This document shows positions 655-4,516 of a DNA stretch of 32,000 bases, in pieces. A program made the translations under genes and the position numbers. The notes below the pieces were generated by a model, which was not told the origin of the DNA, ran no database searches, and worked only from the letters and a program-made list of their open reading frames with translations. Positions within the stretch are counted from its first letter, which is position 1. The number at the start of each line of letters is the position of its first letter. The DNA is from Candidatus Electronema aureum (GTDB lineage Bacteria > Desulfobacterota > Desulfobulbia > Desulfobulbales > Desulfobulbaceae), in assembly GCA_004284765.1 (NCBI GenBank), contig NQJD01000017.1, positions 1-32,000 on the forward strand. The letters are read 5' to 3'.

Positions 655-1287
655 CTAATCGTTTTTTATGCCTGACGAATAATAACGAGGGATTCGCAAA
701 ACCCATCCTTTGGAAATGTCGTCTGGATCAGATGTTAAACTTGGATAACGACTGCTATTTTCTGATATTATTACCGGCATGGGGACATGATATTGCTGTG
801 CTATCTTGCCCAGACAGTCTCCGTCTTTCACCTTATAGTGAGTGTATTTATTTAGTTCGTGCCAATATCTGACTGTATTATCAAATAGAATATCTATATA
901 GTGATACTGATAAGAGAAATAAGCAAACACGACAATAAAAGGAAGTGAATACCATTTCTTTGGAGAAAAACTTTTTGCTTTTGATAGTAAAAATTCAATA
1001 CTCTTTTTAAGAGTAACTAAGGCATCACCTGCTATGTAAACAATGAATGGTGGATTCTTGTTGCATTTTCTTAGAAATTGCGATACCTGACTTTCTGTAA
1101 ACAAGAAAAACCAAATAATTACATTTGCGGTAAATGAAATAATATACAATAAGATGACGAGCAGACAAGGAACAAGTTTAACTACTGCACACGGGATAAA
1201 AACAAAAATCACCACAATAGCCGCTATAAGCTGCCACGGCATTTGTGCAAGAAAAAGCAATTTCCATATTTTTTCAAGAAATTGCAT
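655..1287 (-). CDS. multi-pass membrane protein with C-terminal LysM domain
   Basis: The N-terminal ~130 aa are strongly hydrophobic, with several TM-like segments. The C-terminal YKVKDGDCLGKIAQQYHVPMPVIISEN...ISKGWVLRIP fits the LysM pattern. Last gene of the AT-rich co-directional operon. Confidence 0.7.
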   Translation of the reverse strand: MQFLEKIWKLLFLAQMPWQLIAAIVVIFVFIPCAVVKLVPCLLVILLYIISFTANVIIWFFLFTESQVSQFLRKCNKNPPFIVYIAGDALVTLKKSIEFLLSKAKSFSPKKWYSLPFIVVFAYFSYQYHYIDILFDNTVRYWHELNKYTHYKVKDGDCLGKIAQQYHVPMPVIISENSSRYPSLTSDPDDISKGWVLRIPRYYSSGIKND

Positions 1288-1333
1288 AAAAACGACAGCT
1301 CCTTTGCTGTCAGCAATTTAAATTATTTTAATA

Positions 1334-2317
1334 TCAGATTGGCTTCTTTTCGCTGAATTCTTCTGGCACTTCAATCTCTTCCTCTTCACATACCACCCCA
1401 GTTTTTTCCGAAATATAGGAGATAGCTTTATCAGAAAGGCCTGTCTTATCTTGAATTAAGGCTTTAGCAAGTGCGCTTAATTCATGTGGCTCTATTACCC
1501 CCTTTTCAAGGGCGATTTCAATCACCTTATTGTCAATAGCTTCTTGATTCCTTCGTTGGTCTGAGAGAACAGTAAGAATCTGTCTGAGATATTCATCTGC
1601 CGGATCGTTTGGGTCAAACATTGCCAACAAACTCTGCCAGTCCCTATTTCTGATAAGTGGTGCTACCTCAGCAGCACGTGCTTTTTTGAGATCAAGCCTT
1701 GCTGTTTGATTAAGCATTGCTATATTATTAGCCATTTCATTTTTTTCTTTTTCAACTAAGAATTTATGTTCATTTATCCTCCTTTCAGCCAAGAGATTAT
1801 GCACAGTTTCGTCTAATGCAAGTTTGACAAATGCAGGACGAGTCAGCTTGAATCCTTTGTCATTAACCTCATCTTCAATTTTCTTTGCTAAAATATTTTC
1901 CGCTTCGCCAGTCTGCTCGTAAGTATATCTGCGGCTGGCTCGACGCATCACATCAATTGCTAAATCTTGCAAAAAGTTCCCTGCATCTGTTCTTGCACAT
2001 CGAACGATAACAGCAGGATCGGCAACAGCATAAGTTAATTTTACTTCCGCATGAAATTCAAGTACATCACAAGATGGCAGATCTTCTTGAAAAAAGAGAA
2101 GGCGTTCTCCCATATCAATTTCATAATATGAAGTGTACTTGCCGAAAATAAATTCACCGTGAGTTATCCCTTGTTGGCCTTCATAAACTGTTAAGGCAGG
2201 CCTGCCGTTGCCAATAAAGACAAATGCTGTCCCAGGCTTTGGCGATCCGGGCCGTTCCCAGCGAGTTAGTTGTTTTTCAATAAAGAGAGGTTTTTCTTCT
2301 ATCATTCCAGTCACCAT
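1334..2317 (-). CDS. SPFH/band-7 (prohibitin-like) domain protein without obvious TM segment, coiled-coil C-terminal half
   Basis: The N-terminal half has an SPFH-like pattern (PGTAFVFIGNGRPALTVYEGQQG ... VLEFHAEVKLTYAVADPAVIV ... GFKLTRPAFVKLAL), followed by a long charged helical region. The ATG lies 1 nt after the upstream stop (TAG-C-ATG). Confidence 0.55.
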   Translation of the reverse strand: MVTGMIEEKPLFIEKQLTRWERPGSPKPGTAFVFIGNGRPALTVYEGQQGITHGEFIFGKYTSYYEIDMGERLLFFQEDLPSCDVLEFHAEVKLTYAVADPAVIVRCARTDAGNFLQDLAIDVMRRASRRYTYEQTGEAENILAKKIEDEVNDKGFKLTRPAFVKLALDETVHNLLAERRINEHKFLVEKEKNEMANNIAMLNQTARLDLKKARAAEVAPLIRNRDWQSLLAMFDPNDPADEYLRQILTVLSDQRRNQEAIDNKVIEIALEKGVIEPHELSALAKALIQDKTGLSDKAISYISEKTGVVCEEEEIEVPEEFSEKKPI

Positions 2318-2318
2318 G

Positions 2319-3977
2319 CTAAGAACTTCGTTTCATCAAATCCAATAACCTTACAGCTATATTGGATGTTCTCGACCATATTGAAAGATAACTGCAAATC
2401 CGACGCTTTTCGCCTTCAGTTTTAGCTATATTGAAAATAATTATGGCGATTATTTCATAAAATTCTTGTTGTTTATCAACAAAATCAACCCAAGAACGAA
2501 TTGCTTGAATTGTCAAATCGCTGGTCAACGGGATATTAAGAGAATTTCTTATAAGAAAGACTATCGAACTTGTAACTTGTTTCTCTTCTTTAGAGAAGAG
2601 CAGTAAAACTGGCCGCTGCACATTATTTGCAAAATTGGATTTACGCATCAATCTCCAGAAAATAATTAAACTTAATTTATGCAGTGAGGTCTTTGGATGC
2701 TGCTTTATCCATTCTTTGAGTGTATTTAATATGATTAAATTCCTTTCAGAAACCTTTTCTCCTATATCAAATAATTTTACTACCGCTTGCGCAATATCTG
2801 AAAACAGCCGTCCATCGCCTGATTGAGCAATTATCTTTAAATTATCCAGAGCCTGTTGAGGGAAAAGCAATCCTATATAATGACCATACGCAACTATCGC
2901 TGTCGAATTCAGGCGGAATGAATTCTTTAATCCACTCCAATGATGCAAAATATTAAATGCTTGTTGAGCTATTTTTTCATTCTCGTCGTAAGAAGCTACT
3001 ATAGAAAGTGCCAATGCAGTCAAACGTTGAAGAGATTGTTTTTCTGACTTGGCCCACGGCAAAAATATCTTTTCACGAACAGGACGGAATTCATATATTG
3101 CCAATTGTCCGGCAATTCCTGCGGCCCTTGATCGAACATCAGCACTTGAATGCTCGCCAAGTTCATATAACCACTGAAGCAGCGCATCCGCATAAGCATC
3201 ATATTCATGCCAAATATATCGTAAAAGAGTTGATGAGTCCTCCTGGCATTGAAACGAGACAATATCTATCTGGCCTTGCCCACATTCAGTTGATTCCTCA
3301 CCATCTGAAAGATAAGCGCGAATTTCTTTGAGCCAAGTGCTGCGTTTTTTTTCGTTGACTCTGATATCAAGATCATTTTCAGTTTTTTCTTTTGGCTGAA
3401 GAATAGATTGCAACTGACGACTGGTGTTAAGAACATAACGGTAATTGCAGCCTTCAAGGACTGCTAACGCAATCATAAAACTGCGGTCTTTGACGTTCTC
3501 ATGCTCGTCAAATATCTCTTCAATAGAAGAATCTGACCTTTCCTCGATATGTTTTCCTGAATCATCTCCATGAATAGCAGAACCAATTTTCTGGTTATGC
3601 CCGACAATATTTTGAGCACCTACATCGCATCCTGAAAAATGATTTCCTCCTTGATTATATATAGTTGTAGTGGAGAATAGCCCTTCAATACCAAGTTCTC
3701 TCGCCTTTTTGCTGAATTTGACAAGATACCTTAAAAAGGTTGCAAACTCCTTGTCTTCTCTTACCTCTTCATTGCCGTCAAGAAAACTTTTAGCTGCATT
3801 AAGCCCTTCTTCCTCTGAAAGAGGTTTGACAGATTCATCTGCATTGATATTTTGCTCAATGGAATCATTCTCACTATCTCGATTAGTTACAGATAAATCT
3901 TCGCTATCTGTAGTGCAAGATTGGTCGGCAGACTTCTTTCCATATTTAGAAGCATCAGAAAAGCTGTTATCGCTCAT
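2319..3977 (-). CDS. 552-aa protein: acidic disordered N-terminus, NIVGxNQ motif module, C-terminal alpha-helical repeat (ARM/HEAT-like) region; function unknown
   Basis: Long uninterrupted ORF in AT-rich DNA. Its ATG overlaps the upstream stop (ATGA at 3974-3977). I found no P-loop, nuclease or protease motif. The helical-repeat character of residues ~250-550 is judged from periodic hydrophobic and Leu/Ile-rich helices. Confidence 0.6.
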   Translation of the reverse strand: MSDNSFSDASKYGKKSADQSCTTDSEDLSVTNRDSENDSIEQNINADESVKPLSEEEGLNAAKSFLDGNEEVREDKEFATFLRYLVKFSKKARELGIEGLFSTTTIYNQGGNHFSGCDVGAQNIVGHNQKIGSAIHGDDSGKHIEERSDSSIEEIFDEHENVKDRSFMIALAVLEGCNYRYVLNTSRQLQSILQPKEKTENDLDIRVNEKKRSTWLKEIRAYLSDGEESTECGQGQIDIVSFQCQEDSSTLLRYIWHEYDAYADALLQWLYELGEHSSADVRSRAAGIAGQLAIYEFRPVREKIFLPWAKSEKQSLQRLTALALSIVASYDENEKIAQQAFNILHHWSGLKNSFRLNSTAIVAYGHYIGLLFPQQALDNLKIIAQSGDGRLFSDIAQAVVKLFDIGEKVSERNLIILNTLKEWIKQHPKTSLHKLSLIIFWRLMRKSNFANNVQRPVLLLFSKEEKQVTSSIVFLIRNSLNIPLTSDLTIQAIRSWVDFVDKQQEFYEIIAIIIFNIAKTEGEKRRICSYLSIWSRTSNIAVRLLDLMKRSS

Positions 3978-4414
3978 TTGAACCTGAATTTTTCCATTTT
4001 CTGTTCTCTAATCTCCTGATTACCTCCTACGATATTGACGGCATTGACGGTTGAGCCAGTGAAAATAATACCTCCCTTATCTTGAATAAGAGATGGTTGA
4101 AGGATATGTCTTATCTCTGCTAATAACTCGTTGTCCGTACTGAGCAGTTTATTTATTTGAAGACGCAGAGTCGCTTGCTTACCAAGATCGGAAGGATTAT
4201 CTGCAACATCCTCAGCCGCCTTTTTTATCTCATTTCCAGATTGCCCAGAACGAGAGGTAATCTTTGCCCAAAGAGCTGTTGCTTGTTCCAAAGCAGCAGA
4301 AGTCATCTTTTTTGAAACTTCTTCTAATGCCTGTCCTCCTCCTTTTGTGAGATATGGAATTGCTGGAGAAAGAACTACAACAGCCTCTTTGGCAAGTTCT
4401 ACAACGTCCATCAT
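3974..4414 (-). CDS. 146-aa helical protein ending in the NIVGGNQ motif; first gene of the AT-rich operon
   Basis: The ORF track starts at 4474. I prefer ATG 4414 (MMDVVELAKE...) because AAGGTGAG lies 4-11 nt upstream, and the 4415-4474 extension crosses the GC/AT boundary. The stop overlaps the next ATG. Confidence 0.6.
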   Translation of the reverse strand: MMDVVELAKEAVVVLSPAIPYLTKGGGQALEEVSKKMTSAALEQATALWAKITSRSGQSGNEIKKAAEDVADNPSDLGKQATLRLQINKLLSTDNELLAEIRHILQPSLIQDKGGIIFTGSTVNAVNIVGGNQEIREQKMEKFRFK

Positions 4415-4479
4415 TTTGCTCACCTTTTTGTTAAAATGCAACTTCATAGGATGCTGCCTGCCCCCGCACTTCAAGAACC

Positions 4480-4516
4480 TCGCATCTAACCGCTGACCGC
4501 ATCGAAAGTCAAGATT
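4480..4516 (-). promoter_or_regulatory. 37-nt bipartite conserved element, copy A (minus sense AATCTTGAC-N16-GGTTAGATGCGA); sigma70-like promoter or recombination site
   Basis: The 9-mer and 12-mer are identical to those at 7946-7982 with the same 16-nt spacing, while the spacers are unrelated. It reads as -35 TTGACT, 17 nt, TTAGAT. It lies directly upstream of the four-gene operon. Confidence 0.5.

Follow-up and report, generated by a model that had tools for sequence, protein, structure and literature searches.

The freshwater cable bacterium Candidatus Electronema aureum, a multicellular filament belonging to the Desulfobacterota, carries four densely packed genes near the start of contig NQJD01000017.1 (assembly GCA_004284765.1), and the question raised by this locus is what a small helical protein, a helical-repeat protein, an SPFH protein and a membrane protein with a LysM domain may be doing together. 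We analysed positions 1 to 32,000 of the contig, and this whole stretch of 32,000 nucleotides (nt) is referred to below as the window. Our answer, to which we assign a probability of a little under 0.6, is that the four genes make up a module for regulated cell death or defence, linked to the cell envelope and signalling through a prion-like motif. Judged from sequence comparison, the cassette would combine a Bell/BASS-type amyloid signalling pair (BASS, bacterial amyloid signalling sequence), in which the receptor derives from STAND proteins and has no NTPase, with an obligatory SPFH protein and a wall-tethered membrane protein as partners. An earlier note on the same DNA had concluded that the genes match no system that can be named, and this is true in so far as the cassette is absent from PADLOC and NCBIfam, but not for the first two genes, which fit a Bell/BASS pair both in profile comparisons with hhalign and in the motif that they share.

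A motif shared by the first two proteins

The cassette of 3.8 kb is self-contained and lies entirely on the minus strand, with the gene order g1 (3974–4414, 146 aa), g2 (2319–3977, 552 aa), g3 (1334–2317, 327 aa) and g4 (655–1287, 210 aa). The g1 reading frame has a Shine-Dalgarno sequence, with AAGGTGA ahead of its ATG, and a longer g1 reading frame starting from a TTG at 4474 is an alternative. Coordinates and junctions agree with those in the earlier note: g1 and g2 overlap by 4 bp in an ATGA (3974–3977), a gap of 1 nt separates g2 from g3, and the 46 nt between g3 and g4 contain a GGAG Shine-Dalgarno sequence. The same gap contains a hairpin (1293–1312, minus strand, GACAGC-AAAGGA-GCTGTC) which is followed by a T-run and holds the Shine-Dalgarno sequence of g4 in its loop, and which could serve as a weak terminator or in the translational control of g4.

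The C-terminal region of g1 contains a BASS-like motif, GGIIFTGSTVNAVNIVGGNQEI (residues 114–135; 4010–4075, minus strand), and a copy of this motif, GGNHFSGCDVGAQNIVGHNQKI, is present in g2 (residues 110–131; 3585–3650, minus strand). With blastp, residues 101–135 of g1 align to residues 97–131 of g2 at 43 % identity over 35 aa (E-value 1e-3), and the pairing is present and in register in 13 loci. Motif identity is higher within a locus than between loci (0.444 versus 0.386, permutation p 0.006), and the two motifs of Chloroflexus are 73 % identical and have features in common that are absent from the cyanobacterial pairs. When a profile hidden Markov model built from the g1 motifs alone was run against the 2456 open reading frames (ORFs) of all loci, the matches ranking next were almost all N-termini of g2, located where expected. 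Enrichment in the motif is threefold for G and N and 1.65-fold for V and I; it contains no proline and only few L and K residues, and Dyrka et al. (2020, bioRxiv 10.1101/2020.01.06.895854) describe the same compositional bias in the amyloid signalling sequences of bacteria. The motif regions of g1 and g2 are each modelled as disordered by AlphaFold, with confidently predicted structure adjoining them; the predicted local distance difference test score (pLDDT) is 22–32 for that of g2. The distal half of the motif was aligned by hhalign to the BASS1 stretch YQAGRDQHI, and substring searches of the BASS lists with the motif core gave nothing equivalent. A terminal motif shared in this way is the signature of the bacterial amyloid signalling pairs Bell/NLR and Bab/Agp, and by analogy g1 and g2 would form such a pair.

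The remainder of g1 is consistent with this assignment. Its AlphaFold model consists of six helices at residues 4–105 (pLDDT ~85) and a disordered tail at 108–146 (pLDDT <50), and the protein starts with M-M-D followed by a hydrophobic helix; the most hydrophobic 19-residue segment of g1 scores 1.37. Alignment searches found 36 relatives of g1, all unnamed (a search with the single sequence yielded one, a limit set by the word index), and most of these start with M-[ML]-[DE] (MMD, MLD or MLE), that is with an acidic third residue and then a hydrophobic helix. The predicted helical bundle, the acidic residue at position 2–3 and the hydrophobic N-terminal helix are features by which the Bell domain and its HeLo analogues in fungi are defined. 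As a reference we used six canonical Bell/BASS1 proteins (L026–L031) from Streptomyces, Nonomuraea and Embleya replicons, retrieved by querying first with a published BASS1 motif and then with a Bell domain. Immediately downstream of four of them, an NLR-type or AAA-ATPase gene is annotated. The alignment of 25 g1-family sequences matched these six in hhalign with a probability of 92.9 % (E-value 3.6e-7, 110 columns), and after removal of the motif the helical domains still scored 27.7 (P 2.7e-4), as compared to 10.1 for the reversed control and 15.9 for the best of 30 column shuffles. Neither g1 nor g2 matched an entry in PADLOC, NCBIfam or Pfam, save for a chance-level ZorA match of g1 (E-value 0.0018), and a sequence search of the PDB with the g1 profile returned only designed helical repeats or noise and no solved Bab chain.

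A putative receptor without an NTPase and its proposed membrane partners

The earlier note had described g2 as a protein with an acidic disordered N-terminus and a helical-repeat body, and both parts of this description are borne out by the AlphaFold model, in which the acidic N-terminus is disordered and residues ~150–552 (2322–3530, minus strand) form a short helical segment, a beta-hairpin and an ARM/HEAT-like alpha-solenoid, with a pLDDT mostly of 85–97. A Foldseek search of the PDB with this body returned importin-alpha and designed armadillo proteins (E-values 1e-4 to 1e-3). The g2 of the window has no Pfam match and no P-loop. Longer orthologues of 708–763 aa are found in Chloroflexus and in loci L020, L023, L024 and L025, and these have an extra domain between motif and body with a Walker A and a Walker B (hhhhD[DS]) motif. 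Four of these five match nSTAND3 in Pfam, the NTPase class of Avs5, with scores of 21–24 bits which are under the cut-off of 27.2, while there was no Pfam match for P0041, the orthologue from L023 with its 71 % G+C content; two of the long orthologues also gave weak PADLOC PDC-S73 matches. The statement in the earlier note that the operon contains no ATPase holds for g2 in this lineage, but not for its distant orthologues with their nSTAND3-like P-loop.

Residues 131–549 of g2 align to residues 327–756 of the 763-aa L020 orthologue, which has the P-loop (E-value 2e-59), and since the motifs of the two proteins align as well, approximately 215 aa have been deleted from g2 in the clade of Electronema and the cyanobacteria. 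We conclude from these alignments that g2 is a relic of an nSTAND3-type STAND (NLR-like) receptor, the P-loop domain of which was lost in this lineage. In each of the five long orthologues the Walker A motif is atypical and reads G-x4-G-K-x-[ST] rather than GK[ST], with the Ser/Thr displaced by one residue (P0039 residues 148–156, L020 3682–5973, L023 936–3101, L024 512–2713 and L025 3839–5965; GKYAT, GKRAT, GKAS, GKRTS and GKWSS), and this may represent an altered or inactive NTPase which predates the loss of the full domain. In cyanobacteria g2 is consistently divided between two genes, the first for a protein of ~180 aa with the acidic region, the motif and the first helices, and the second for one of 355 aa with the solenoid; these genes either adjoin directly or overlap by 4 nt, and it is within the structured body that the protein is divided (L003 7465–9068, and also L007, L008, L009, L010, L015, L018 and L019).

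With regard to g3 and g4, the SPFH/band-7 and LysM assignments of the earlier note were both supported by Pfam matches above the cut-offs. The Band_7 match of g3 covers residues 27–154 (24.3 bits, cut-off 23.6, E-value 3.8e-5), the Chloroflexus orthologue scores 27.5 bits, and the precomputed Band_7 match of the L025 g3 has an E-value of 1e-5 or better. No hydrophobic segment or membrane anchor was found in g3, with a highest 19-residue hydropathy of 0.93, and a PDB sequence search returned only designed helical repeats or noise. The alignment of the g3 family consists of the SPFH domain, a coiled coil which varies in length by up to ~100 residues, a helical domain conserved at the C-terminus, and an acidic tail in which a proline (Pro318) near the end is nearly invariant; in the window the tail ends with VPEEF.

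In g4 the LysM match is located at residues 151–200 (nt 688–837; 25.4 bits, cut-off 20.9, E-value 1.4e-5), whereas the conserved part of the protein comprises residues 1–131 (nt 895–1287), whose start is amphipathic and which contain, besides an MPWQ motif, two strong transmembrane helices within a strongly hydrophobic stretch at 9–65, a highly basic loop at 66–113 (9:2) with the invariant Arg73, and a likely third helix at 114–131. After the third helix, the copy in the window and that in L025 have a LysM domain, the cyanobacterial copies TPR and LysM, L020 a TPR and L024 a bacterial SH3 (SH3b) domain, and Chloroflexus has no tail at all. LysM and SH3b are cell-wall-binding domains. We infer that this tail is placed in the periplasm and not in the cytoplasm, because the positive-inside rule applied to the 66–113 loop and the third helix predicts this orientation, and because LysM and SH3b bind the cell wall. 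The earlier note had described g4 as a membrane protein ending in LysM, which holds for the copy in the window; across loci this domain is an accessory tail and not the core of g4, with wall attachment as the recurring theme. No NTPase, nuclease or protease domain was detected in any of the four proteins with Pfam, PADLOC or NCBIfam.

The order and orientation g1-g2-g3-g4 were kept in every fetched locus that was long enough to show them, a conservation which the earlier note had proposed to survey, and the recurrence of this order in all these loci argues that the clustering is not due to chance. The most informative variant is locus L025, where the first gene encodes an EAD7 domain (Pfam E-value 1e-12) followed by the motif, in place of the Bell-like head; the pair of motifs is DGVFFEGSGSVKIRGDVTG in the EAD7 protein and SGVFFAAEARVDGNISGN at the N-terminus of the downstream 708-aa receptor. 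As the head is replaced in L025 and the motif is kept, g1 is a swappable plug-in that is joined through the motif to a constant core of g2, g3 and g4, and the effectors coupled by amyloid motifs in published systems show the same behaviour. The possibility that g1 itself is an EAD7 domain was rejected, as the hhalign alignment of g1 to the L025 EAD7 protein covered just the 23-residue motif. The EAD7 variant is flanked by genes for a PLD-like protein with a lamin-tail domain (L025 764–2530) and for a protein of >2382 aa with beta-helix and vWA matches (L025 8105–13011), and neither showed a copy of EAD7 in Pfam.

This swap bears on the division of roles within the cassette. The earlier note had seen g1 and g2 as a sensor and adaptor pair controlling an SPFH-LysM effector; in such a model g1 and g2 would act in the cytoplasm, and killing or blocking would fall to g3 with the LysM membrane protein, perhaps as a gated channel or as a wall-remodelling switch. 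In support of such a polarity, g4 is the sole integral membrane protein, g3 and g4 are conserved as strictly as g2, and SPFH proteins are textbook scaffolds and regulators of membrane proteins. Band7-like domains are also found in the 'effector position' of vWA-MoxR systems (Kaur et al. 2020, PMC7159879). We nevertheless consider this polarity to be probably wrong and the arrangement unlikely: g1 resembles a known executioner family and is the only component swapped for an effector-recruiting EAD7, as happens to effectors but not to sensors, whereas no channel or enzyme domain can be recognised in g4, the tail of which is variable or absent. Taken together, g1 looks like the executioner and g2 like the receptor, with g3 and g4 more like a platform bound to the receptor than like the effector.

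In the mechanism which we propose on this basis, g4 would be an anchor in the inner membrane whose LysM domain binds the peptidoglycan, and would recruit an oligomer of the SPFH protein g3 at the cytoplasmic face of the membrane. The solenoid of g2 would dock on this platform, or watch over it, and phage attack, damage to the envelope or a similar disturbance would cluster g2, so that the g2 motif could adopt a cross-beta or beta-solenoid fold and template the motif of g1. The N-terminal helix of g1, once freed, would then enter the membrane and cause the death of this one cell within the filament. Alternatively, g3 and g4 could have the reverse role, as the site at which g1 acts or as its restrainer. 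A more specific proposal, which we offer as tentative and rather doubtful, is that the g3 oligomer and g4 are a sensor of envelope integrity that licenses prion-like nucleation by a STAND relic without NTPase, such that damage to wall or membrane, whether mechanical or enzymatic, and not nucleotide-driven oligomerisation, fires the amyloid switch and frees a pore-forming Bell protein. If true, SPFH membrane scaffolds would for the first time be connected with amyloid signal transduction, and an NLR-type pathway would be operating without its ATPase.

Distribution and genomic setting of the cassette

Relatives of the cassette are rare and scattered. We found 41 relatives of g2 among 5.8 billion protein clusters and 264 of g3 in an exhaustive search of 1.84 billion representatives, and the cassette family is present in five of 185,579 species genomes. 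The loci with the cassette include those from Microcoleus, Okeania and other cyanobacterial genomes and metagenome-assembled genomes (MAGs), Chloroflexus aurantiacus, a second Electronema-like contig (L012) and eleven metagenome contigs, with a G+C content ranging from 0.37 to 0.71; the contig with 71 % G+C, which was reached through g2, has the same arrangement, as do all three distant g3 relatives that were checked (P0082 at 34 % identity, P0087 at an E-value of ~1e-29 and P0113 at ~1e-15). For the scan of loci, an initial and diverse alignment of g2 proved too variable. Searches of viral contigs did not find the cassette, and a plasmid search did not find g3. Many of the hosts are filamentous (the cable bacterium, Microcoleus, Okeania and Chloroflexus), and the Electronema copy is most similar to the cyanobacterial versions, which fits a spread of suicide modules among multicellular prokaryotes. 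A distant copy in L020 (139/763/354/413 aa) adjoins genes for a tyrosine integrase and a KfrA_N protein (L020 949–2867), which suggests that it is carried on an integrative or plasmid-like element.

Several observations weigh against a cell-death module that signals through an amyloid motif. The profile of g1 motifs matches the g2 of the window itself weakly (E-value 8.9), so that the pairing in the window rests on the blastp alignment and the visible register. The motif of g2 is 60–110 residues away from the N-terminus, while the published NLR partners carry theirs at the extreme end (the first 30 residues), and when compared by eye the motif is unlike BASS classes 1, 2 and 4–9 and the apparent class 3. 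The similarity of the helical domain of g1 to Bell is by itself only moderate (hhalign probability 42 %). The Foldseek comparison with the PDB, a check which the earlier note had proposed, was productive for g2 but gave nothing significant for the g1 model (best E-value 0.4); the 50 matches listed did not include Bab (PDB 9H9V), and this single fold search did not show a likeness of g1 to the solved Bell-type or HeLo-type domains of Bab and HET-S. We thus treat g1 as a remote relative of the Bell proteins and not as a proven one, as the assignment comes from a six-sequence profile and the fold search did not confirm it. The family is not confined to filamentous organisms either, since it also occurs in MAGs labelled Cyanobium and Chamaesiphon, and the roles given above to g3 and g4 are entirely what we infer. 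Finally, some loci are situated among housekeeping genes, and several (L004, L005) between core metabolic genes with no defence genes nearby.

This last observation also speaks for a different reading, namely that the cassette is a housekeeping or stress module which organises membrane microdomains or the envelope, similar to SPFH-NfeD or HflKC-FtsH, and that the motif is an ordinary beta-strand interface of a stable g1-g2 complex. No toxin or enzyme domain is detectable in the cassette, and on inspection of its sequence the motif resembles hexapeptide or beta-helix repeats, which also build stable folds that are not amyloid. The earlier note had itself considered that homologues could occur singly among housekeeping genes; some of the loci indeed have such surroundings, yet the linkage of the genes is conserved. 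The very sparse and patchy distribution across phyla is at odds with a housekeeping function, as are the foreign base composition and the IS1 element, integrase (in L020) and OLD gene found nearby. The STAND ancestry of g2 and the swapped head of g1 are moreover typical of conflict systems (Kaur et al. 2020, PMC7159879), and on balance we find a housekeeping module improbable.

The composition of the DNA around the cassette is clearly atypical for the host. As the earlier note had stated, there is an abrupt switch in G+C content near 4450, with AT-rich DNA up to the left edge of the window: the G+C content is 0.35–0.43 from this edge to ~4480 and 0.47–0.65 across most of the remaining window, and that of the operon (~0.38) is far under the G+C content of the host. 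On a longer contig (L001) the AT-rich DNA continues for ~830 nt past the left edge and ends at an IS1-family element (plus strand; window 1–105, then L001 12213–12934) which is cut by the window edge and encodes an InsA zinc ribbon and DDE_Tnp_IS1 in two frames. Because the operon is so much lower in G+C than its host, and because the closest full-length relatives are cyanobacterial or metagenomic with 46–58 % identity, the sequence indicates that Electronema acquired the cassette horizontally. A short gene downstream of g4 (g5, 106–264, minus strand, 52 aa) was rejected as a member of the cassette, as it was seen in no loci but L001 and L002, the two identical Electronema copies which reach that far; it has no family match, and its start, MIGGNIANLL…, faintly echoes the IVGGNQ core of the motif.

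Directly upstream of the cassette is a truncated N-terminal fragment of dnaE (4486–5460, minus strand, 324 aa) with a PHP domain (Pfam PHP E-value 1.4e-56), and there is no intact dnaE in the window. The dnaE fragment and the cassette are 93 % identical at the DNA level in L012 while the DNA further upstream differs, and the truncated fragment thus travels with the cassette. In L012 the OLD and PIN genes are replaced by a different AT-rich insert upstream of the dnaE fragment (L012 1644–2354, G+C content 0.33), encoding a 236-aa multi-pass membrane protein without a family match. The window contains three pairs of dnaE-derived direct repeats (5420–5450 and 6138–6168, 97 % identical; 5240–5271 and 7995–8026, 94 %; 4480–4516 and 7946–7982, 73 %), and as these short repeats bracket the toxin-antitoxin genes and the OLD gene, they suggest repeated insertion of cargo at a single hotspot, the 5' end of a dnaE copy. 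The OLD-family nuclease (6121–7893, minus strand, 590 aa) has AAA_15/AAA_21 and OLD-like TOPRIM domains and stands alone, with no GajB-like helicase adjoining it; it is a recognised defence gene and was picked up when PADLOC was applied as the earlier note had proposed (Old, E-value 1e-59), unlike the four cassette proteins. The match of the PIN gene is weak. The neighbourhood of an OLD nuclease, a PIN gene and a broken core gene which the earlier note had described is in this way confirmed. A second PHP gene beyond the AT-rich island was rejected as a further piece of dnaE, since it encodes a separate and complete 263-aa PHP-domain protein. Elsewhere in the window, a second AT-rich patch (28501–29000, G+C content 0.40 within a region of ~0.6) contains a 166-aa ORF (28643–29143, minus strand) with a sub-threshold UPF0547 zinc-ribbon match.

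Such surroundings raise the possibility that the Electronema copy is a decayed remnant without a present function, cargo trapped in an insertion hotspot. The deletion of the P-loop domain from g2 could be read in this way, as could the broken dnaE pieces and the IS element around the island, and g3 is split in some of the cyanobacterial copies, being broken into two ORFs in L007 (8583–9505) and L019 (3191–4127). In a further damaged cyanobacterial copy, a stop-codon-rich insert of 1.3 kb lies between g2 and g3 (L009 8541–9827). The Electronema cassette itself has four intact reading frames with good ribosome-binding sites and translational coupling, however, and the NTPase-less form of g2 is kept at 46–58 % identity across many cyanobacterial and metagenomic lineages, while the cassette proteins of L012 are 88–97 % identical to those of the window. 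Conservation of this form over both distances implies purifying selection, and as Agp demonstrates that a partner without an NTPase can work, we consider decay to be very unlikely. A receptor which has dropped its NTPase and is still conserved raises the question of what triggers nucleation, and the obligatory SPFH and wall-anchored partners point to the envelope as its input or as the site of action.

Comparison with known systems

None of the cassette components matched a system model among the named anti-phage systems of PADLOC-DB v2, and in the literature searched we found no paper which joins the parts of the cassette; among the top literature matches listed, none combined an amyloid signalling motif with SPFH-family terms. 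Partial likenesses exist with several systems. A coiled-coil SPFH protein encoded beside a polytopic membrane protein, with which it presumably works, is also found in HflK/C-FtsH and stomatin-NfeD, but g3 lacks an anchor of its own, its partner is neither a protease nor NfeD, and the strict link with a STAND-derived receptor sets the cassette apart. The EAD-coupled conflict systems (Kaur et al. 2020, eLife, PMC7159879) likewise recruit modular effectors to a STAND-type core via small adaptor elements in adjacent genes, and one member of our family uses EAD7; Band7-like domains are noted in that study as well, only as scaffolds fused to the vWA proteins of MoxR systems. The coupling in the cassette is through a short beta-prone motif and not through a duplicated EAD, and the helical domain of g1 is not EAD7. 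With the nSTAND3 STAND NTPases such as AVAST type 5 (Avs5), the long g2 orthologues share a match at the Walker A end and a C-terminal sensor made of helical repeats; they differ in their score (21–24 bits, below 27.2), in the GKx[ST] form of Walker A and in the lack of a fused SIR2 effector, and the g2 of the window does not have a P-loop at all.

The proposed logic of the cassette is that of HET-S/NWD2 in Podospora anserina, where a short amyloid motif at the N-terminus of the receptor serves as template for the motif at the C-terminus of a helical effector that targets the membrane, although the fungal system has a NACHT-WD receptor and a HeLo domain, and no SPFH or wall-tethered partner. 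The bacterial Bell/BASS pairs (Dyrka et al. 2020, bioRxiv 10.1101/2020.01.06.895854) share with the cassette a helical effector of 120–150 aa with a hydrophobic N-terminal helix and usually an acidic residue at position 2–3, a disordered C-terminal motif of ~22–25 aa rich in G, N and V/I, a matching motif in the product of the next collinear and overlapping gene, and many filamentous hosts, and there is profile similarity between g1 and the canonical Bell/BASS1 proteins. The cassette differs in that g2 has no NB-ARC or NACHT domain but either nothing or a sub-threshold nSTAND3-like P-loop, an ARM-like solenoid instead of TPR or WD repeats, and an internal motif (residues ~60–130), while an SPFH gene and a membrane-protein gene always follow the pair in our family. 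The screen of Dyrka et al. covered only those Bell neighbours annotated as NB-ARC or NACHT, and since this annotation was required, a receptor of the g2 type would be missed; the g1-g2 pair is absent from Table S2 of that study. SPFH, Band 7 and LysM are mentioned neither there nor in the Bab/Agp paper (Ibarlosa et al. 2024).

A precedent for an amyloid partner without an NTPase is Agp from E. coli, where Bab and Agp act together in abortive infection (Ibarlosa et al. 2024, bioRxiv 10.1101/2024.11.07.622273). Both systems have a small Bell-type effector and an adjacent receptor with a shared motif of amyloid type, both receptors are without an NTPase, and both are set in defence islands; BASS11 also occurs with EAD7 in that study, comparable to the combination of motif and EAD7 in L025. 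They differ in that Agp has a TPR-GreA/B-C-PIN architecture whereas g2 is an ARM-like STAND relic, and in that Bab/Agp is a two-gene system without an SPFH or membrane partner. Amyloid-templated signalling is found in fungi and animals and has recently been shown in one bacterial anti-phage system, and to this the cassette would add a motif and a family of receptors which screens based on NB-ARC and NACHT domains would miss.

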